IMG/VR virus record: IMGVR_UViG_3300034101_003866
Span: 32,001 to 96,000 of that record
Direction: 5' to 3' (one strand)
Source of the DNA: a virus
Length of the DNA: 64,000 bases
Part shown: positions 31,824 through 48,093 of the stretch, piece after piece
Numbering within the stretch: position 1 is the first letter of the stretch
Layout of the letters: each line of letters opens with the position of its first letter
Made by a program: the position numbers and the translations under genes
The notes under the pieces: generated by a model
Seen by the model: the letters and a program-made list of their open reading frames with translations, nothing else
Told to the model about the DNA's origin: nothing
Databases searched by the model: none

Positions 31824-32193
31824 TTTTATTTTTAGTCCAAAACAAAAAACAGATTCGACAGATACCAACTATTATTGTATGGCTGGATCAGAAAACTATA
31901 CTGATGGAGATGGATTTCCAAGATCAGAAAAAGATGGAAAGAATGTTCTTGCTAAAAGAATATTCAAAACAAATTCTCAACCGCAATATTTTATTAAGAT
32001 ATCCAATAGCAATAAATTATTTAATCCTCTTGGAAGTGGACTAGACGAAAAGTCATATAGTATTGTTGATAATGTCTGTAGACCATCAGACAAGTTCAGA
32101 TCTGTTAATGAAAAAGTCTTTAATTTATATCTGAATTTTTTATCCACAAAGAACATATCATGGTTAACTAGAGCAGAAAGAGAGATTATATAA
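31816..32193 (+). CDS. Hypothetical protein, paralogue of 30720..31127
   Basis: Shared motifs as listed for 30720..31127; GAGG SD. Confidence 0.7.
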   Translation: MDDFIFSPKQKTDSTDTNYYCMAGSENYTDGDGFPRSEKDGKNVLAKRIFKTNSQPQYFIKISNSNKLFNPLGSGLDEKSYSIVDNVCRPSDKFRSVNEKVFNLYLNFLSTKNISWLTRAEREII

Positions 32194-38592: not shown

Positions 38593-39626
38593 TAACATAC
38601 TTTAGGAGTAGCTCCTATAATACTCATAGCATGTGCGAACAACAGTACTTTGGTGAGTACGTACTGGGCTGGAGAGGATTGTCTGGCCAAAAAGCAGATA
38701 AAGGAACTATTACTCATAAAGTTCTTGAAATTTTAGCGGTTATGAAAAAAGCCGAGCAAGATGGACAAACTACTATTGATGACGATCTTATCGGATTAGT
38801 TGATATTAATAATTATGATTTAAATAATTTAATAGAGAAAGTATATACCTATTATACTAATAATGCTCAACACCATAAATGGTCGGCCAAAGATCATAGA
38901 GACTGTAAAGACTGGGTTTATAAGGCTATAGAATTTAATGGCGGGATGTTTGATCCAAGGAAAAGAAATATTCTTTGTCCAGAACAACACTTTGATTTTG
39001 AAATTAAAAAACCCTGGGCTAAATACTCTTATGATATTGGCGGCGAAAAACTTGAGGGTAATCTAGCACTAAAGGGTACTATTGACTTAATAACACTGGT
39101 TAATGATTCTACAATAGAAGTAATAGACTGGAAAACTGGAAAAAGATTAGATTGGGCTACTGGAGAAGAAAAAACCCAAGAAAAACTAGAAAAAGATCCA
39201 CAGTTAAAGATTTATCACTATGCAATAAAACATCTTTATCCTCATATTAAGAATATAATATTTTCAATATATTTTATTAATGATGGTGGACCATTCTCCA
39301 TTTGTTTTCATGATTCTGATCTAGCATCAACAGAAGATATGTTAAGACAAAAATTTGAAGCAATTAAAAGCACTAAAAAGCCAAGGTTGCATAAAAGCTG
39401 GATGTGCAGTAAGTTGTGTCATTTTGGCAAAACAACATTTGATGGAACTCATATTCAGCCAATAGAGGAATATAGAGATGGACAAGTATGCAAATCTGGT
39501 CAAACCATGACAAAGTGCGAACAGATAAAACATGACCTTGATCTTTATGGAATTGACACTACAATTGGGTTGTACAAGAACAAAAATCACTCGTTTGGAA
39601 GTTACAAAGCCCCCGGATCAATATGA
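38586..39626 (+). CDS. Cas4/RecB-like PD-(D/E)xK exonuclease, probable ATT start
   Basis: Frame open upstream of ATG 38631 (IIITYFRSSSYNTHSMC); GT..H, GTIDL, IDWKTG, QLKIY, C-terminal C..LC..C; GAGGAG SD 8 nt before ATT 38586. Confidence 0.8.
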   Translation: MIITYFRSSSYNTHSMCEQQYFGEYVLGWRGLSGQKADKGTITHKVLEILAVMKKAEQDGQTTIDDDLIGLVDINNYDLNNLIEKVYTYYTNNAQHHKWSAKDHRDCKDWVYKAIEFNGGMFDPRKRNILCPEQHFDFEIKKPWAKYSYDIGGEKLEGNLALKGTIDLITLVNDSTIEVIDWKTGKRLDWATGEEKTQEKLEKDPQLKIYHYAIKHLYPHIKNIIFSIYFINDGGPFSICFHDSDLASTEDMLRQKFEAIKSTKKPRLHKSWMCSKLCHFGKTTFDGTHIQPIEEYRDGQVCKSGQTMTKCEQIKHDLDLYGIDTTIGLYKNKNHSFGSYKAPGSI

Positions 39627-41038
39627 CAAAAACATATTCAGTTCTTCATGCTCATTCTCACTATAGTCTTTTAGATGGAATTAGTAAGCCTAGTCAAATA
39701 GCAGAGAGATGTGTTAATGCCGGAATTAAAACCTGTGCAATAACTGATCATGGAACTATTTCCGGATGTGTTCAGTTCTATCAGGCTATGAAAGCCAAAA
39801 AAATTAAGCCAATATTAGGTTGCGAACTTTACATACCTAAAAATGATTCATTCGTTAAAGAGAAAGAGAATAATAATCTGAGTCACTTCTTAGTTCTTGC
39901 TAAAAATTTAGCCGGATGGAGGACTCTTGTAAAAATCATATCTGAAACTAATAGAATAGACAACTTCTATCATAAGCCTAGAATTAGTTTTGATAGATTG
40001 GCACCTATGCTGGACGGAAATATAATAGGATTTTGCGGACATTTAGGATCTAGCATATCCGATTTGGTTGAAGAAAATCCTGATAACTATACTGATAAGA
40101 CAATATCCTTTATAGACTATATGAAAGAAATATTTGGCAAAGATAATTTCTTTCTAGAAGCTCAACTTATGGATCAGGAACTGAATCCTAAACAAAAAGA
40201 AATGACAGATATAATGAGACAATTATCTGTTAAGACTAAAACTAAAATAATAGCCACTCCAGATGCTCACTATTGTGAAAGAAAAGATGCTATTGATCAA
40301 AGGATTTTATTATGTAATAATCTTAAGACAACTTTGATAGACATAAATAAGAAACTCTTGGCTAATGAGGACGTTCCAATGAGTTGTTTCTTCAAATCAG
40401 ATAATTATCATATTCCAGATCCAGAAGAAATGATAGAATGGCATACCAAAGAAGAAATTGAAAATACTTTATATGTTGATTCAATGTGTGAGGAATATTC
40501 TATTCTTAGTAAACCACTACTTCCTGCTTTTGAATGTCCAAATAATTCCAATCCAGAAGAATATCTGAGACAATTATGTAGAGATGGTTGGAGAGAAAAG
40601 ATAATGAATGATATTCCAGAATCTGAGCATACCAAATATGCAGACAGAGTAAAATTAGAATTAGATATTTTACAAAAAGCTGGACTATCTAGTTACTTTC
40701 TTATAGTACAAGATATTGTAAACTATGTTAAAAAGAGCGGGTGGCTTCCAGGCCCAGGAAGAGGATGTTTTGTGCCTGATACGAACGTTAAAATGCACGA
40801 CGGCACAACAAAAAAGATCTATCAAATCAATATAGGAGACATTATAATAGATGCCTATGGAAATCCCCAGGAAGTTTATGATACTTTGCAGTATGATATT
40901 AATGAAGATATTATTGAATTAATATTTGAAAATGAAAAAACTATTAGATGCACTAAAGACCATAAATTTTTAACAAAAAATAGAGGGTGGGTAGAGGCCC
41001 AACATCTATCAAATATAGATGATATTGTAGAAGTTTAA
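39623..41038 (+). CDS. dnaE: DNA polymerase III alpha part 1 (PHP domain to GPGRG, 381 aa) fused to split-intein N half
   Basis: LHAHSHYSLLDG, AITDHG, KPILGCE, LAKN..GW, KPRI, DAHY, YFLIVQD, GPGRG, then intein Cys1. Confidence 0.95.
   Translation: MTKTYSVLHAHSHYSLLDGISKPSQIAERCVNAGIKTCAITDHGTISGCVQFYQAMKAKKIKPILGCELYIPKNDSFVKEKENNNLSHFLVLAKNLAGWRTLVKIISETNRIDNFYHKPRISFDRLAPMLDGNIIGFCGHLGSSISDLVEENPDNYTDKTISFIDYMKEIFGKDNFFLEAQLMDQELNPKQKEMTDIMRQLSVKTKTKIIATPDAHYCERKDAIDQRILLCNNLKTTLIDINKKLLANEDVPMSCFFKSDNYHIPDPEEMIEWHTKEEIENTLYVDSMCEEYSILSKPLLPAFECPNNSNPEEYLRQLCRDGWREKIMNDIPESEHTKYADRVKLELDILQKAGLSSYFLIVQDIVNYVKKSGWLPGPGRGCFVPDTNVKMHDGTTKKIYQINIGDIIIDAYGNPQEVYDTLQYDINEDIIELIFENEKTIRCTKDHKFLTKNRGWVEAQHLSNIDDIVEV
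40766..41035 (+). mobile_element. Split intein N-fragment (IntN, 90 aa)
   Basis: Block A CFVPDTNV..DG..K.I..I.IGD, block B IRCTKDHKFLT, GWVEA..L...D; ends at a stop codon. Confidence 0.95.
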
Positions 41039-41061
41039 AAAGAACCCCTTCCTAGACTTTT

Positions 41062-41077
41062 GGTGTATGTTTATATA
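41062..41077 (+). promoter_or_regulatory. GGTGTA-N6-TATA putative phage promoter
   Basis: GGTGTATGTTTATATA between the IntN stop and the endonuclease ATG. Confidence 0.55.
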
Positions 41078-41087
41078 GAGAAATATT

Positions 41088-41897
41088 ATGAAAAATATAA
41101 CATTCAAATTTCTAGAAAATAATAACTTTAAATTTAAGGGATTCAGTAATACCCCCATAAAGGATCAATGCATAACATGTCAAAAAATATTTGAATATAA
41201 AAAACTTAAAAAATTTCTAAGAAATAGACTATCCTTGCCCACTTCTCAGTGGTGTCAATGTCATAAATGTTTTTTAAAATTTAGAACTATTAATAATCCA
41301 GAATGGATGGAGAGTAATCGAAAAGCACAGCTTATAGCACAAAATAAACCAGAGCAAAAAAAGAAAAATGCTCTAGGAGTGTCAAGAAGCTGGGATAATA
41401 AGAGAAAAAAGAAAGCTTCAATCTATCTAAAAAATAGATGGAAAACAGATCAAAAATTTGCCCAAAAAGCCAGATCAAATTTAAAAATTAATGATACTCA
41501 ACATATAAAAAATACATTTGGAATTGGTGGACTAAAAGGATTTTATAATGAAATATACTATGATAGCGCATTAGAGTTATCGTATTTATTATGGTGTGAA
41601 CAACTTAGTATTCCAATTAAAAGATATGATCTAGATCCAATACAATACGAAATATCAAATAAACAAAAGTTATATTTTCCAGATTTCATTATCCATGAGG
41701 ACATAGTGGTAGAGATAAAAGGTAAGGGCTTGTATTTTGCTAAAAATAAAGAACAAAATTTAGCGAAAACTGCAGAAGCCAAGAAAAAACTAAAAAATAA
41801 ATTTATAATAATATTTGATCAAGACAAAGAAGTTAAAACCTACTATAAAAAAGCCAGAAAATTACATCATGAAATTAAAAAGCAAAAAGATAATTAA
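41088..41897 (+). CDS. Free-standing putative homing endonuclease (TnsA-like PD-(D/E)xK) between the split-intein halves
   Basis: CxxC...CxCxxC, basic linker, YDSALELSY, YFPDFII, VVEIKG. Confidence 0.8.
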   Translation: MKNITFKFLENNNFKFKGFSNTPIKDQCITCQKIFEYKKLKKFLRNRLSLPTSQWCQCHKCFLKFRTINNPEWMESNRKAQLIAQNKPEQKKKNALGVSRSWDNKRKKKASIYLKNRWKTDQKFAQKARSNLKINDTQHIKNTFGIGGLKGFYNEIYYDSALELSYLLWCEQLSIPIKRYDLDPIQYEISNKQKLYFPDFIIHEDIVVEIKGKGLYFAKNKEQNLAKTAEAKKKLKNKFIIIFDQDKEVKTYYKKARKLHHEIKKQKDN

Positions 41898-41976
41898 GAA
41901 TCACACAGGAAAAGTCCACGATATCTCTGTTAAAAATTCTGCATCCTATAATGTAGAGGGGTTGGGAGTACATAAT
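41869..41976 (+). mobile_element. Split intein C-fragment (IntC, 36 aa)
   Basis: Basic N-terminus, block F VHDISV....SYNV, block G VHN followed by Ser+1. Confidence 0.95.
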
Positions 41977-42702
41977 TCTGCTGCAGGATGTTTAGTATCA
42001 TATCTTATTGGTATTACTCAAATTGATCCTATAAAATATGATTTACTGTTTGAAAGATTTTATAATGAGGGCCGTAATACTGCAGATCATATCTCCATGC
42101 CAGATATTGATGTTGACGTTCCAATTAATAAAAGAGAACAGATCATTGAATATATTAAAAATAAGTATGGTTCAGACAAGGTGTCTCAGATGATTACATT
42201 TAATACCATGAAAGGTAGAGGGGCCTTAAAGGAAGTATTAAGAGTATATGATAATATTTCTTTTGAAGAAATGAATAGAATAACAAAGTTCATTCCTGAC
42301 GAAGCAAAAATTGCTGACGAATTACAGGAAATGAAAGAAGATACGGGAGAGGCATCAATTATCAGGTGGGCACTAGAAAACAATGTTGACAAACTGAAGG
42401 AGTGGTGCTATATTAGTGATGATGGTTCTCTTTCTGGGCCTTTGGCGAAAAGGTTTGAACAAGCCATACGACTTGAAGGAACAAAATCTAATCAGTCAAA
42501 ACATGCTGCCGGTGTAGTTATTAGTAGTCAAAGTCTCAGTGCTGTTTGTCCTATGGTTTATGATTCAAAAAATAAACAAGCAATAGCAGGGATGGAGATG
42601 CAAGATTTGGAAAATCTAGGTTTGATTAAATTTGATATTCTAGGAATAGCTTATTTGGATAAAATGATGTGTGTTTCCGATTTACTAAAAAATGGTGTAT
42701 AA
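41869..42702 (+). CDS. dnaE: Split-intein C half fused to DNA polymerase III alpha part 2 (catalytic palm, 241 aa)
   Basis: MKLKSKK...VHN|SAAGCLVSYLIGIT.IDP..YDLLFERF, SMPDIDVD, SKHAAGVVI, GLIKFDILG. Confidence 0.95.
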   Translation: MKLKSKKIIKNHTGKVHDISVKNSASYNVEGLGVHNSAAGCLVSYLIGITQIDPIKYDLLFERFYNEGRNTADHISMPDIDVDVPINKREQIIEYIKNKYGSDKVSQMITFNTMKGRGALKEVLRVYDNISFEEMNRITKFIPDEAKIADELQEMKEDTGEASIIRWALENNVDKLKEWCYISDDGSLSGPLAKRFEQAIRLEGTKSNQSKHAAGVVISSQSLSAVCPMVYDSKNKQAIAGMEMQDLENLGLIKFDILGIAYLDKMMCVSDLLKNGV

Positions 42703-42709
42703 CATTATA
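42694..42709 (+). promoter_or_regulatory. GGTGTA-N6-TATA putative phage promoter overlapping the dnaE part-2 stop
   Basis: GGT GTA TAA CAT TATA; upstream of AAGGA SD and the HNH gene. Confidence 0.55.
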
Positions 42710-42735
42710 TCAATTTTTATAAAGGAAACTACTAT

Positions 42736-43419
42736 ATGAATAAAAAAGACTTAAAAAGAATGTTATATCAGGAAAATAAAACTCAAAGAGAAATTTCTAA
42801 AATTTATCTATGCTCTGAGTCTCTAATAAGCCAAAAAGTAAAGCACTATGGTTTACAAAAAGACATATCAGATGATTATATTGGAAAAAAGTTTCATTCT
42901 CTGCAACCTATTGAATACCTAGGTAAAGACAAAAATAGCCATGCTATATTTTTATGTGTTTGTGATTGCGGTCAAACAAAAACAGTATTAGGAAATTCTT
43001 TAAAGAATGGAAATAGCAAAAGCTGTGGATGCAAGTCTCGTAAAAGAGGAAAAGAACATAAACTATATTCTGGATATGAAGAAATAAGATCAGAATACTG
43101 GGGCAGGGTATTACGCGGGGCTAAAGATCGAGGAATTGATGTAAAAATTACTATTAAAGAAGCATGGGAAATTTTCTTACAACAAGACAGAAAATGTGCA
43201 TTAAGTGGTGAAATATTATATTTTCCATATACAAGAAAAACTTCTAAATATAGCACAGCATCTTTGGACAGGATAGATTCAAATGGACACTACGAAAAAG
43301 ATAATGTACAATGGATTCACAAAAAATTAAATACTATGAAGATGAATATGACAGAACATGAATTTTTAAATTGGTGTAAAAAAATAAGTATTAATAAAAA
43401 ATTATGCAAAGGAGAATAA
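42736..43419 (+). CDS. HNH-type putative homing endonuclease with N-terminal HTH and CxCDCG..SCGC domain
   Basis: TQREIS HTH, IGKKF..L, FLCVCDCG, SKSCGC, KCALSG, ASLDRIDS..HY..DNVQW...N.MK. Confidence 0.85.
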   Translation: MNKKDLKRMLYQENKTQREISKIYLCSESLISQKVKHYGLQKDISDDYIGKKFHSLQPIEYLGKDKNSHAIFLCVCDCGQTKTVLGNSLKNGNSKSCGCKSRKRGKEHKLYSGYEEIRSEYWGRVLRGAKDRGIDVKITIKEAWEIFLQQDRKCALSGEILYFPYTRKTSKYSTASLDRIDSNGHYEKDNVQWIHKKLNTMKMNMTEHEFLNWCKKISINKKLCKGE

Positions 43420-43420
43420 A

Positions 43421-43600
43421 ATGCAAAAACAATTTCATGAACTAGCGATTGGTGATAGATTCACAGTTAATGGTGTTGAATATATTAAAACTGAAGAAGT
43501 TAGAGTTAGCTGTTGCAGAAGTATCAATTGTTATGCTGCTTCTGATGCTAATCAAAAAGGACATTTTCCAGGAAATACAGAAGTTACAATAAATGGCTAA
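43421..43600 (+). CDS. Small 59-aa protein with SCC motif (not in ORF track)
   Basis: MQKQFHELAIGDRFTVNGVEYIKTEEVRVSCCRSINC...ING*; AGGAG SD; overlaps the exonuclease start. Confidence 0.7.
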   Translation: MQKQFHELAIGDRFTVNGVEYIKTEEVRVSCCRSINCYAASDANQKGHFPGNTEVTING

Positions 43601-44288
43601 TCTACAAAAAATTTGTGTCTTTGATTTGGAAACGGACGGAGTTAATCCTGATCTTTGTAGTCCAGTTCAAATTGCTGCGGTTATGGTCGATCCATTAAAA
43701 TTAGAAATAGTTAAAGATTCAGAATTTAACATTACTGTTAAGCCATCGGTTTTAGAAGAGAAACCAGAATACTCTTATTCTGATTCTGATGTTCTAGACT
43801 TTCACGCTAAAGTGAGAGGTAGTACAAAAGATCAAATTTTAGAATCATGGAAGTCATATCAAAAACAAGAACACGGATGGAATATGTTCATATCATACTT
43901 AGATATGTATCATATAAGATCCAACGGAAAGAAATCTTGTTTCACAGCACCAATAGCAGCTGGTTATAATATCAATAGATTTGATCTAAGGATAATAGAA
44001 AGATTAAGTCAAAGATATAATAATCTGAATAAAGAGGGAAGATCATCTTTATTCTATCCTAGAGACGTAATAGATATTATGAATTTAATATTTTATTGGT
44101 TTGAAGGAAATAATGAACTGAAAAACTATACACTAGACAACCTTAGAGATTATCTTGGTATAGACAAAGAAGGTGCTCACGATGCCCTCAAGGATGTTAA
44201 GGATACTGCAAATATTTTAATTAGATTCTTAAAGTTGCACAGGGGACTGTCGAATAAGATTAAGTTTAAATCATCATTTATTGGATAA
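43593..44288 (+). CDS. DEDDh 3'-5' exonuclease (DnaQ/epsilon-like)
   Basis: VFDLETDG (ExoI), AGYNINRFD (ExoII), AHDALKDV (ExoIII). Confidence 0.9.
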   Translation: MANLQKICVFDLETDGVNPDLCSPVQIAAVMVDPLKLEIVKDSEFNITVKPSVLEEKPEYSYSDSDVLDFHAKVRGSTKDQILESWKSYQKQEHGWNMFISYLDMYHIRSNGKKSCFTAPIAAGYNINRFDLRIIERLSQRYNNLNKEGRSSLFYPRDVIDIMNLIFYWFEGNNELKNYTLDNLRDYLGIDKEGAHDALKDVKDTANILIRFLKLHRGLSNKIKFKSSFIG

Positions 44289-44296
44289 ATTAATTA

Positions 44297-45922
44297 ATGG
44301 GTAAGTTTTTTACTTTTGATTGTGGTTGTAAGTTTCCGGTTATAAACGATAATGAGAATTTTCCAAGAATAGATTTTTCTCCAAAATTATCTAATATCAA
44401 CCTTAACTGTGAAAAAACATGGGATTTAATATCTCTTGGTAATACCAAGGGATGTTTTCAGCTAGAGTCCAGACTAGGCCAAACAATGGCCAGAAAACTC
44501 AAGCCCCATAATATTGAGCAGTTATCCGGGTTGATTAGTATTCTCAGGCCAGGATGTCTTGAGGCTATGAGAGATGGTAAAAGCGTATCAAACCATTATA
44601 TTGATAAAAAAAATGGATTGGCGTCTATTGACTATTTCCATACTGCTTTAGAACCTATTCTTAAAGATACATATTCTGAAATGATTTATCAAGAACAGGC
44701 GATGTCTATTGCTAAAGAATTAGCTGGATTTAATCTTAAAGAAGCAGACGATCTTAGAAAAGCAATTGGCAAAAAACAAGCAGATAAAATGGCTAAGGTT
44801 AAAGAACAATTTATTATTGGTTCTAAAAATAAGGGACTAATAAATGAAAAGGAAGCAGAACAAATTTTTGAATGGATTGAAAAAAGTCAAAGATATTTAT
44901 TTAATGCTAGTCATTCTATTAGTTATGCAATGAATGCTTATTTATCTGCGTATGCTAAGGCGCATTTTCCAAGAGTCTTTTTTGCTTCGTATCTTAGGTT
45001 TGCCAAAGATAAAATAGATCCTCAACAAGAGATTAAAGAGTTGGTTAGAAATGCTATTGAAATGGATATTGAAATAAGAATACCAGACTTTAGAAATTTG
45101 AACGAATTATTCATACTCAAGGATAAAAAGATATATTTTGGATTAACAGACATTAAAGGTGTTGGTAACTCAGTATATAAAAAGATTATTGATCTTGTTA
45201 AGAATTGTGATGTTAATGAATTATCTTGGTCACAAACCATGTCTATAGTTCTTTTAAATATAAACTCTATTGCGGCCAAAGCAATGATTAGTTGTGGGGC
45301 ATTTGACTATTTTAAAAAGAATAGATCAGAATTGTTATTTGAATATGAAATATGCAGTGGATTAACAAAGAAAGAGTTGGGGTCTTTTAAGGACTATATA
45401 TCTGTTAACTCTGATGCTGGAATATTAGATATATTAAGATATATATATGACAATACTAAGCTAATAAAAGGCAGGAAAGAGGCTATTAATAATTATATAC
45501 AATCTATGATACGTCCTCCGTATTCTTTGGTTGATAAAATAGAATGGCTATCTGATTCAGAAAATGGCCTACTTGGGGTGGGAATTACTTGTTCCAAATT
45601 AGATGTTTATGATGTAAGTTCTGCGAATTGTAATTGTAAAACTTTTAAAACGTCTTTAATTAAAGATAACATTATATTAGTTGGTGAAATTTCTAATATC
45701 AATGTTACCAAAACAAAAAATGGTAAAAACCCTGGATTAGAGATGGCATTTGTAACGATTGAGGACCAGTTTGGTACGCTAGATACTGTGGTCTTTTTTC
45801 CAGAACCATTTTCTCAATATAGATCGTATTTATTTATAGGAAGCATACTTGTATTTTCTGGTAATCGTAGCAAGTCGAAGGATGGGCTGATTGTGGAGAA
45901 GTGCTTTAATCCAGTTTCTTGA
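44297..45922 (+). CDS. dnaE: DNA polymerase III alpha part 3 (fingers, HhH, OB fold), no intein
   Basis: GNTKGCFQLES, LRPG, IYQEQ.M, LAGF...EADDLRKAIGKK, FNASHS..YA, KAHFP..F, IYFGL..IKGVG, MAFVTIED. Confidence 0.95.
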   Translation: MGKFFTFDCGCKFPVINDNENFPRIDFSPKLSNINLNCEKTWDLISLGNTKGCFQLESRLGQTMARKLKPHNIEQLSGLISILRPGCLEAMRDGKSVSNHYIDKKNGLASIDYFHTALEPILKDTYSEMIYQEQAMSIAKELAGFNLKEADDLRKAIGKKQADKMAKVKEQFIIGSKNKGLINEKEAEQIFEWIEKSQRYLFNASHSISYAMNAYLSAYAKAHFPRVFFASYLRFAKDKIDPQQEIKELVRNAIEMDIEIRIPDFRNLNELFILKDKKIYFGLTDIKGVGNSVYKKIIDLVKNCDVNELSWSQTMSIVLLNINSIAAKAMISCGAFDYFKKNRSELLFEYEICSGLTKKELGSFKDYISVNSDAGILDILRYIYDNTKLIKGRKEAINNYIQSMIRPPYSLVDKIEWLSDSENGLLGVGITCSKLDVYDVSSANCNCKTFKTSLIKDNIILVGEISNINVTKTKNGKNPGLEMAFVTIEDQFGTLDTVVFFPEPFSQYRSYLFIGSILVFSGNRSKSKDGLIVEKCFNPVS

Positions 45923-45946
45923 CAGTCTACGGCGGTGGTTTATAAT
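45919..45946 (+). promoter_or_regulatory. Sigma70-type promoter TTGACA-N16-TATAAT
   Basis: Perfect hexamers upstream of ssb (TAAGGAG SD). Confidence 0.75.
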
Positions 45947-45984
45947 ATGGTAGTTGCGAGTTTTCTTTCTTAAGGAGTTGATTT

Positions 45985-46356
45985 ATGAATATTACGTTGC
46001 TAAAGGGTAATCTTGCTAGGGATCCAGAACTAAGAAATGTAAATACTGGAGGAAAGCAAACATCAGTAGTTAATTTTACTGTTGCTGTTTCTCGTGAGTA
46101 TACAAAGGCTAGTGGAGACAAGGATAAGATTACTTCCTTTATAAATTGCGAAGCATGGGATAGCGGTGCTGAGATGATTGCTGAGTCATTCAAGAAGGGC
46201 GATTTGGTTATGGTCGAAGGATCTCTTAGAAATGATTCGTGGGAAAAGGATGGAGTTAAGCACAGTAGTCTAAAGGTTAGAGTAAATAACTTTTCAAAGA
46301 TTACAAGACTTTCTAAGAATTCCAGACAGGATTCACAAGAGCCGGTGGCATTCTGA
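45985..46356 (+). CDS. ssb: Single-stranded DNA-binding protein
   Basis: GNLARDPELR, FTVAV, FINCEAW, KGDLV.VEGSL...W, short acidic tail ending in F. Confidence 0.95.
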   Translation: MNITLLKGNLARDPELRNVNTGGKQTSVVNFTVAVSREYTKASGDKDKITSFINCEAWDSGAEMIAESFKKGDLVMVEGSLRNDSWEKDGVKHSSLKVRVNNFSKITRLSKNSRQDSQEPVAF

Positions 46357-46381
46357 TAAAGATATTTAAACCCTTTTAAAG

Positions 46382-46414
46382 ATATGGGGGTGCTAATACC
46401 ACCCCTGTATTTTT
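46382..46414 (+). terminator. Rho-independent terminator after ssb
   Basis: atatgggggtg / cacccctgtat stem followed by a T-run. Confidence 0.65.
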
Positions 46415-46422
46415 ATCTTCTT

Positions 46423-48093
46423 ATGACAAAACCAAAACTTAAAATCTTGATGTGTTCTGAAGCCAGTTTCATAAATTCTGGTTTTGGAATTTATACTAAG
46501 GAGCTTCTTAATAGACTGTACGATACCAATAAGTACGATATAGCAGAATTTGCTTCGTATGGATTTGTTAATGATCCAAGAGATACTTCTATAAGATGGA
46601 AGTATTATGCTAATGCCGTAAAGGATGGAGATCCTAGACACAAAGAATATTCTTCTAGGGGAGATAACCAATTTGGAAGGTGGAGATTTGAAAAAGTTTT
46701 GTTGGATTTTAAGCCAGATGTTGTTATTGACATAAGAGATTATTGGATGACGGCTTATCAAAGAACGTCCCCACTACGTAAGTTTTTTCATTGGATACTT
46801 ATGCCAACAGTAGACTCTTCTCCACAACAAGAAGAATGGATTGATACTTTCTTAGACGCAGATGCTATATTTACATATTCTGATTGGGGTGCAAAAGTAT
46901 TACAAGACCAAGCATCTGGTAAAATCAACTATATCGATACAGCATCCCCAGGAATAGACTGTGATATTTTCAAGCCAAAAGACAGAAATACAATCAGATC
47001 AGCTTTTGGAATAAGTGAAAATAGTTTTGTTGTTGGTTCAGTAATGAGGAACCAAAAGAGAAAATTAATTCCTGAACTTTTTTCAACTTTCAGAATTGTT
47101 CTAGATAAATTAGAATCAAATAATAATAAAGAGCTAGCAGATAAAATGTTCCTGTATCTGCATACTAGCTATCCAGATATGGGATGGGATATACCAGAGA
47201 TACTAAGACAAAATAGACTAACCAATAAGGTATTGTTCACATATCTATGCAAAAATTGTGGTAATGTTTCTTGCTCAAAATTCCAAGGACCAACTAAAGT
47301 ATGTGAGAGATGTCTAGCAAAAGCCAGCGGCTTCCCATCTGTTACAGACGGGGTTAGCTCTGAGCAATTAAGTAATATATATAATATATTTGATATGTAT
47401 GTACAGTATTCTATTTGCGAAGGATTTGGTATGCCCCAAGTTGAGGCTGGTGCTTGCGGTGTCCCTATTGCTACAGTAAATTATAGCGCTATGTGTGACA
47501 TAGTAGATAAGTTGAATGCTTATCCTATAAAAATTAAATCAGCATTCAAAGAATTAGAGACCAAGGCTATAAGAGTATATCCAGACAATAATGATCTTGC
47601 TGAATACATTTTAGACCTAGCATCTCAACCAAAACCAGTTCTTAATAAAAAAAGATTTGAAACTCATGAATTGACACATAAATATTATGATTGGAACAAT
47701 GCTTTTAAGAAATGGGAAAAATATCTAGATAGTTTAGATTCCTCCGGCTATAGGTCAAATTGGAATGCTGGAGAATATCTGGAGCCATTAAATACCCAGA
47801 TCAATAATCCTAACAATAGTAATTTTGATAATCTTTTACATATTTTAAACGATAATATGAAAAATGCATCAATGATTGGGAGTCAAAAGATTCTAGAACT
47901 ATTGAACAGTTCAGATTATGGGTTTGTTCAAAATGGACCAACAAGTATTCTTGGATATAGTTTTCAAGATCTTAAAGAATATATTAGAACAAATATAGAG
48001 AATAATAACCAAGCAAAACAAGCCAAAGACAGTGATATTAAATTTGATGAAGATTTTATCTTATATGCAAAATTAAAGAATAAACAACAATGA
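46423..48093 (+). CDS. GT4 glycosyltransferase with inserted zinc ribbon
   Basis: SGFG.Y, RNQKRK, LYLHT, CKNC...CERC, EGFGMPQVEA (EX7E); ATG 46423 lies after the terminator. Confidence 0.85.
   Translation: MTKPKLKILMCSEASFINSGFGIYTKELLNRLYDTNKYDIAEFASYGFVNDPRDTSIRWKYYANAVKDGDPRHKEYSSRGDNQFGRWRFEKVLLDFKPDVVIDIRDYWMTAYQRTSPLRKFFHWILMPTVDSSPQQEEWIDTFLDADAIFTYSDWGAKVLQDQASGKINYIDTASPGIDCDIFKPKDRNTIRSAFGISENSFVVGSVMRNQKRKLIPELFSTFRIVLDKLESNNNKELADKMFLYLHTSYPDMGWDIPEILRQNRLTNKVLFTYLCKNCGNVSCSKFQGPTKVCERCLAKASGFPSVTDGVSSEQLSNIYNIFDMYVQYSICEGFGMPQVEAGACGVPIATVNYSAMCDIVDKLNAYPIKIKSAFKELETKAIRVYPDNNDLAEYILDLASQPKPVLNKKRFETHELTHKYYDWNNAFKKWEKYLDSLDSSGYRSNWNAGEYLEPLNTQINNPNNSNFDNLLHILNDNMKNASMIGSQKILELLNSSDYGFVQNGPTSILGYSFQDLKEYIRTNIENNNQAKQAKDSDIKFDEDFILYAKLKNKQQ

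Follow-up and report, generated by a model that had tools for sequence, protein, structure and literature searches.

How does a replicative DNA polymerase whose coding sequence lies in three separate genes come to act as one enzyme? This question is raised by the dnaE locus at positions 39623 to 45922 of the 64,000-nucleotide stretch of viral DNA analysed here (the window, which corresponds to positions 32,001 to 96,000 of the 120-kb IMG/VR virus record IMGVR_UViG_3300034101_003866, with an estimated completeness of 87% and about 31% G+C). The locus encodes DnaE, the α subunit of DNA polymerase III (Pol III), in three parts on the + strand. Junction 1, between GPGRG and SAAG, is flanked by the halves of a split intein, whereas junction 2, the break after KFDILG, carries none; we refer to parts 1 and 2 together as the N-half and to part 3 as the C-half. 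Comparison with related loci indicates that the only replicative polymerase detected in this record is very probably a C-family DnaE built from three translation products. Its intein-less palm/fingers split, with an embedded exonuclease gene and a cysteine-bearing hairpin at the start of the C-half, appears to be the main new element, junction 1 being of an already known kind.

A C-family polymerase encoded in three open reading frames

The domains of a complete DnaE are distributed over the three parts in order. Part 1 (39623..40765; 381 aa, ending in GPGRG) comprises the PHP domain (PF02811, E 1.2e-34, residues 8-181) and the start of the palm, and is orthologous to residues 1-381 of 622-aa intein-less proteins. 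Part 2 (41977..42702; 241 aa and a stop codon, from SAAG to LLKNGV) contains the palm and thumb regions, including the catalytic motifs PDIDVD and KFD, and part 3 (44297..45922; 541 aa, beginning MGKFFTFDCGCKF) comprises the fingers, an HhH domain and an OB fold. The Pfam model DNA_pol3_alpha (PF07733) is split over junction 1: part 1 covers its positions 1-66, and part 2 its positions 66-260 (E 5e-55). Part 3 then matches the finger (PF17657, 2e-41) and HHH_6 (PF14579, 6e-9) models and, weakly and below cut-off, an OB domain; its AlphaFold2 model includes a C-terminal β-barrel region. An earlier sequence-only reading had proposed this three-part DnaE with its intein halves and gap genes, and had called for a profile alignment of the joined exteins: every open reading frame (ORF) is present and the Pfam domains run continuously over the parts.

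Alignments to bacterial Pol III α agree with this assignment. Part 2 aligns with residues 426-625 of Taq Pol III α, its PDIDVD and KFD motifs falling on 'smpdidtd' and 'kmdflg', while residues 34-348 of part 3 align with Taq 648-955 and residues 32-347 with E. coli α 587-899. The exteins sum to 1163 aa, and fused relatives measure 1102-1151 aa. The closest matches to parts 2 and 3 among cultured phages reach about 30-39% identity. By homology the polymerase is assigned to the DnaE-type C family, not by single-chain architecture, since it occupies three ORFs here and two in most relatives.

Several lines of evidence bear on whether the parts still make one polymerase. Across 44 orthologues, part 2 keeps the catalytic residues D43, D45 and D220 without exception; all catalytic and deoxynucleoside triphosphate (dNTP)-binding motifs are likewise invariant among orthologues, and ratios of nonsynonymous to synonymous substitution rates (dN/dS) of 0.07 for part 2, 0.16 for part 3, 0.11 for the exonuclease and 0.36 for a 59-aa ORF in the gap indicate that all four genes are under purifying selection. 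The halves might nevertheless have taken up separate roles, or be decaying, with replication left to the host or to an unseen phage polymerase; the incompleteness of the record, the absence of any detected clamp gene in it and the fact that polymerase function here is predicted would be compatible with this. We consider it improbable, given the dN/dS values of 0.07-0.16 and the invariant motifs, the tight gene order across a very wide radiation, and an intein with intact splicing residues, which a requirement for the host protein would predict. Furthermore, no other polymerase family was found in the record: an intact polymerase elsewhere would have spoken against the three-part enzyme, and no PolA, PolB or second DnaE was detected in its 120 kb.

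We also observed that residues 343-348 of part 3 (45323-45340), just past the HhH domain, read RSELLF, are nearly invariant (R343, L347, F348) and resemble a clamp-binding motif of the QLxLF type.

The palm/fingers break and the genes within it

The break at junction 2 lies at the palm/fingers boundary, about 15-20 residues past KFD (roughly E. coli α 575-586), as placed by the Taq and E. coli alignments. Its distribution was followed in 80 related IMG/VR loci whose part 3 is 59-98% identical to that of the window, 79 of which extend upstream to the N-half. The order 59-aa ORF, exonuclease, C-half is kept in all 80, and the N-half precedes it in every one of the 79 that reach far enough; the N-half stop and the C-half ATG are conserved in all loci sampled. 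Almost all of the best 120 part 3 homologues, with identities down to 66%, are 539-544 aa long. When part 2 was searched against 1.8 billion cluster representatives and the best 150 (50%-identity clusters, 46-83% identical) were examined, about 140 stopped within 30 residues of the part 2 end, and 9 ran on into the fingers. These results accord with the claim of the sequence-only reading, which had suggested surveying relatives for the break, that the third chain is translated separately. Taken together, they indicate that the split is old and the norm for a very large phage radiation, and that it is not peculiar to this genome.

More distant relatives retain the essential layout. In the split lineages L088, L092 and L093, whose part 2 is about 50% identical to that of the window, an exonuclease gene lies in the gap in every case, alone in L092 and with other genes in L088 and L093; across lineages the gap holds between 1 and 5 genes. 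In the fused loci L087 and L089, which share the synteny of the module, the exonuclease gene stands outside dnaE; the contig of L091, the third fused locus, spans just 4.8 kb and shows no exonuclease gene. We noted in addition that a uracil-DNA glycosylase gene accompanies the exonuclease in the gap of L093 (L093:8926-10708). It seems that replication and repair genes accumulate in the gap of junction 2.

The C-half differs from fused polymerases at its very beginning. When the end of part 2 and the beginning of part 3 of the window were aligned with 9 fused relatives, the first 25 or so residues of part 3 (44297..44371) proved to be extra. Within part 3, 43 orthologues share C9, G10, C11, F13 and C38 without variation. 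AlphaFold2 predicts residues 4-17 to be a β-hairpin with CGC in the turn (predicted local distance difference test, pLDDT, 76-79; pattern FxFDCGCxF), and the distant split lineages L088, L092 and L093 share the (F/P/K)CGC head and the CGC...C pattern. The proposed tie between the cysteine-containing N-terminus and the split is therefore supported, as the extension is present in split and absent in fused forms, and the CGC hairpin is likely a new interface element.

The same cysteines also bear on a different reading, namely that unrecognised chemistry ligates the two halves after translation, using a conserved Gly-x end of the N-half and the CGC hairpin at the start of the C-half. Invariant cysteines at the new N-terminus and a C-terminal ...G(E/V) conserved in most relatives speak for it. 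However, the extra sequence of about 25-28 residues is too short for a Hint fold, neither part 3 nor the tail of part 2 gave a Hint or intein match, the first cysteine is at position 9 and not terminal, and distant lineages have N-half tails of differing length and sequence, which makes a ligation of this kind very improbable.

A little less credible still is the bridging of junction 2 at the level of RNA or translation, by a group I or II intron, trans-splicing or ribosomal bypass, to give one polypeptide. Bypass in T4 gene 60 is a phage precedent for translational bridging, and the pieces here are co-oriented in one apparent operon, a scan of the + strand having found no terminator-like site inside the dnaE genes here. 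On the other hand, positions 39000-46500 match no Rfam intron or other RNA family even at E <= 1, the gap carries two protein genes under purifying selection and differs in size between lineages, and the N-half stop is conserved together with the C-half ATG and the split-specific N-terminal peptide that starts from it. Finally, an artefact of assembly or gene calling, conceivable for a metagenome-assembled viral contig, has a negligible chance of explaining the layout, because the gene order is identical in 80 independent IMG/VR contigs, and it recurs in Logan, ENA, JGI and NCBI assemblies of different samples and in 4 contigs of metagenome-assembled genomes (MAGs), while the L006 contig (98% identical) repeats the intein locus of the window exactly; chance can be set aside on the same grounds.

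Two conserved genes occupy the gap. The exonuclease gene (43593..44288, 231 aa) encodes a DEDDh 3'-5' exonuclease and putative proofreader (Pfam RNase_T PF00929, 1.4e-11; PHROG 192 'DNA polymerase exonuclease subunit', 3e-25), in which D11, E13, D131, H196 and D201, forming the DxE, D and Hx4D motifs, are invariant in 44 sequences. The 59-aa ORF (43421..43600) overlaps the exonuclease start by 8 nt and occupies the same place in 80 of 80 related loci, with F14, C31, C32 and N36 invariant. Its AlphaFold2 model is a small β-barrel (pLDDT 91) that matches only generic SH3-, Tudor- or KOW-like barrels (Foldseek E >= 0.1; Z <= 5). Searches for it returned no Pfam or PHROG family, no cultured-phage match and no longer fused homologue, and in the ESM Atlas only unnamed viral clusters. 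As the distant split lineages have no homologue of it, the ORF appears to be clade-specific and dispensable for the split as such, and its product is perhaps an accessory of the exonuclease. For the same reason, a metal site shared between its invariant CC and the CGC of part 3 was considered and disfavoured.

Two further configurations of dnaE were examined alongside junction 2. The two adjacent dnaE genes of Cellulophaga phage phiST were tried as a case of the same split and rejected, as they are broken elsewhere and nothing lies between them. In eight relatives (L062:5200-6700, L028:5200-6700, and also L063-L066, L070 and L077), the N-half is broken a second time, between HIS and MPDIDVD and without an intein. 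There the upstream piece ends in ...FPEFSIQTFKNGV and a stop codon, beside the catalytic aspartates; a free-standing ORF of about 290 aa with LAGLIDADG-like motifs follows; and the downstream piece has a new N-terminal extension ahead of MPDIDID. On this evidence, DnaE in these eight relatives would consist of three chains meeting at two non-covalent junctions.

The split intein and the HNH insertion

At junction 1, part 1 continues into an N-terminal intein half (IntN, 40766..41038; 90 aa and a stop codon), with which it forms a 471-aa ORF (39623-41038), while the C-terminal half (IntC, 41869..41976; 36 aa from an ATG at 41869) precedes part 2. IntN opens with Cys1 (CFVPDT) and has the block B motif TKDH; IntC ends in VHN ahead of Ser+1. 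Intein-less relatives indicate what splicing would restore. In relatives such as L003 and L005 the PHP and palm gene encodes a single 622-aa protein (381+241) reading GPGRGSAAGCLVSY, and joining GPGRG to SAAGCLVSYLIG reproduces the uninterrupted sequence of 69 relatives. The existence of these single 622-aa orthologues supports the trans-splicing that had been suggested from the sequence of the window.

The intein itself is sporadic. The N-half is uninterrupted in 69 of the 80 loci, and the intein halves with the nuclease gene occur only in L006 and in L058 (61% identical). Large contiguous inteins occupy the site between GPGRG and S in roughly a dozen relatives, and a contiguous mini-intein, P0266, is 59% identical to the IntN and IntC halves of the window. 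Cys1, TKDH and the HN ahead of S are invariant across 4-6 intein alleles (58-98% identical), this mini-intein included. The best PDB sequence match of IntN is the NrdJ-1 intein (8ubs, phmmer E 7e-7). The intein of junction 1 is thus predicted to splice in trans. The combination of both joining modes in one polymerase, which had been thought unusual, is indeed rare, being found in 3 of 81 loci, but the junction 2 split that contributes to it is the ordinary state of a large radiation.

Between the intein halves lies a free-standing gene for a 269-aa nuclease, a putative PD-(D/E)XK-like homing endonuclease (41088..41897), whose end overlaps the IntC ORF by 29 nt. It matches PHROG 33911 and PHROG 945 'endonuclease' and, weakly, Pfam Phage_endo_I (3.8e-4) and PDDEXK_3; these two were the only Pfam matches at E <= 0.01, no Vsr-like or GIY-YIG domain was detected among them, and no PDB sequence match was obtained. 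By eye, its sequence resembles that of a canonical PD-(D/E)XK enzyme (FPDF...VVEIKGK). A hairpin ahead of the nuclease gene is among the traits of fractured genes; the stem at this place here (41028-41062; -9.5 kcal/mol, z -1.3) is equalled by 21 of 200 shuffles.

Other intein positions were seen in the fingers of fused relatives. In P0157 and P0249, near residue 790, an IntN follows directly on ...RY(Q/S)FN(A/K), beside an SHS motif, which marks an additional place where dnaE is fractured, near the cyanobacterial DnaE intein site and apparently not identical to it. P0229 has a contiguous intein within the fingers.

A second mobile element lies at junction 2. The HNH ORF (42736-43419, 227 aa) matches PHROG 374 'HNH endonuclease' (3e-25) and no Pfam family. 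Compared with L006, the window shows 97-100% identity through part 2 to about 42647, about 55% over its last 55 nt, and a resumption of identity at 43402; the HNH gene is absent from L006, and the old N-half tail, LCKGE and a stop codon, now terminates the HNH ORF. The drop in identity and the absence of the gene therefore indicate that an HNH cassette (42648..43401) entered the N-half gene a short distance before its 3' end, bringing with it a replacement tail, LLKNGV (approximately 42648-42702). This points to a very recent homing event with a co-conversion-like footprint over the last 18 or so codons of the N-half gene. Two details of the sequence-only reading have accordingly to be refined: the HNH gene, which it lists between parts 2 and 3, does not belong to the basic architecture and is a recent mobile insertion, and LLKNGV, which it gives as the end of part 2, arrived with the cassette. 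Homologous HNH genes occur at other positions around dnaE in relatives.

The locus belongs to a replication module on the + strand (36.7-48 kb) comprising a primase, a deoxynucleoside monophosphate kinase-like gene, a PD-(D/E)XK nuclease, the dnaE locus, a single-stranded DNA-binding protein (SSB) gene and a glycosyltransferase. A perfect TTGACA-16-TATAAT promoter-like (sigma-70-like) site at 45919-45946 overlaps the end of part 3 upstream of the SSB gene, and a terminator with a 16-bp stem lies downstream of it (46377-46415), so the SSB gene may be a separate transcription unit. Four module contigs (L095-L098, part 3 57-61% identical) have been placed in MAGs carrying the labels Alphaproteobacteria, Flavobacteriales, Chitinophagia and 'bacterium'; they are probably mis-binned phage DNA, and the labels therefore give no reliable host.

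Assembly of the polymerase and comparison with known systems

From these data we propose that the 471-aa and 277-aa products would associate through IntN and IntC and trans-splice between GPGRG and SAAG to yield a 622-aa N-half (PHP, palm and thumb), a step suggested by the intact splicing residues and the exact restoration of the host motif. The N-half would then bind the separately translated 541-aa C-half (fingers, HhH and OB) without a peptide bond, as conservation suggests; the N-terminal β-hairpin of about 25 residues that the C-half has gained, with its invariant CGC and a third invariant cysteine, would likely form the new interface. The DEDDh exonuclease encoded in the gap would be the proofreading subunit, apparently from the same operon, and the 59-aa β-barrel protein, translationally coupled to it, may be a clade-specific accessory subunit. 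On this view, an older two-gene architecture has been overlaid by selfish insertions, namely the intein together with its nuclease gene, and the HNH gene.

A number of observations weigh against this proposal. The Pfam Hint and intein matches fall below curated cut-offs (Intein_splicing, 27.2 bits against a cut-off of 35.8). The FastTree phylogeny is unrooted and poorly resolved, with the fused forms as two small nested groups that imply at least two changes. A profile search found no homologue of the 59-aa ORF in L087-L089, a distant split lineage among them, and no split-specific Cys or His that could complete a metal site with CGC was found in the N-half (in a comparison with 3 usable fused sequences). 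The record being only 87% complete, its remainder could hold an additional polymerase. Lastly, that the chains bind, that the intein splices and that no joining takes place at the RNA level is what we infer from comparison.

A more elaborate form of the proposal is that, in a large radiation of uncultured phages, Pol III α is a heterodimer whose palm and fingers halves are clasped by the new three-cysteine β-hairpin (possibly a metal site completed by the partner), that the proofreader gene is embedded because the three chains assemble co-translationally, and that the nested fused forms are re-fusions that lost the clasp. As a whole we regard this as doubtful, and put it forward tentatively.

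If true, a two-chain Pol III α would show that this enzyme can accommodate a non-covalent hinge between palm and fingers, and would offer a natural system for the study of palm-fingers communication, exonuclease recruitment and the origin of split essential genes. The locus and its relatives also bring together, in one gene family, the proposed stages of fracturing: a large contiguous intein, a mini-intein, a split intein with a free-standing endonuclease, an intein-less fracture with an endonuclease gene, and a fresh HNH insertion with a co-converted flank. Furthermore, the Ser+1 split intein of 90+36 aa is a candidate protein-ligation tool.

Junction 1 has close counterparts. Fractured genes, in which split intein halves surround a free-standing homing endonuclease gene, were described by Dassa et al. 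(2009, PMC2677866) and include three environmental DnaE loci; since the layout is the same (N-extein with IntN, stand-alone nuclease ORF, and IntC with C-extein, co-oriented in a phage-like dnaE), junction 1 appears to be a new member of this known kind. NrdJ-1, the closest solved relative of IntN, itself comes from an environmental fractured gene of that study, and the contiguous large and mini inteins at the junction 1 site fit its evolutionary model. The nuclease appears to differ, being PD-(D/E)XK-like by weak matches here and of the Vsr-like (EDxHD) or GIY-YIG types there, and a second, intein-less dnaE break is not reported in PMC2677866. The cyanobacterial Ssp and Npu DnaE likewise encode Pol III α in two genes joined by protein trans-splicing, with an IntC of about 36 aa. 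In contrast to the present case, their insertion site is in the fingers and not at GPGRG in the palm, their halves are at distant loci and not adjacent, and their inteins have an IntN of about 102-123 aa and Cys+1, as opposed to 90 aa and Ser+1, with weak similarity between the two (E 0.006-0.5).

The predicted complex as a whole resembles the E. coli Pol III core (α-ε-θ) in combining a polymerase with a DEDDh proofreader, perhaps together with a third, small subunit. It differs in that α would be two chains and in that the product of the 59-aa ORF is a predicted β-barrel whereas θ of E. coli is helical, no homology having been found between them. PolC has its exonuclease inside the coding sequence for the polymerase, within the PHP domain, whereas here it is a separate gene between palm and fingers.

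The nearest parallels to junction 2 are genes in pieces. As cited in PMC2677866, the gp43 PolB gene of Aeromonas phage 25 lies in two parts on either side of a GIY-YIG gene, and a homing endonuclease fractures an intein-less ribonucleotide reductase gene of a T4-related phage; that paper also describes an SbcD-like locus in which an intein-less gene lies in pieces. Junction 2 is like the T4-related genes in presenting an essential replication enzyme as two polypeptides predicted to assemble non-covalently, and resembles the SbcD-like case in the extra residues at the new termini, with homing endonuclease genes frequent at such breaks. The differences are that the polymerase belongs to family C and not, as in Aeromonas phage 25, to family B; that the split appears ancient and extends over a large radiation, whereas the T4-related cases concern single phages; and that the conserved occupant of the gap is a proofreading exonuclease gene in place of a homing endonuclease. 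No published description of the junction 2 split was found in the limited literature searched, which included the DnaE surveys PMC3919608 and PMC12926913, where bacterial C-family replicases are single chains or intein-joined. Junction 2 can thus be seen as extending the genes-in-pieces theme to a replicase of family C.

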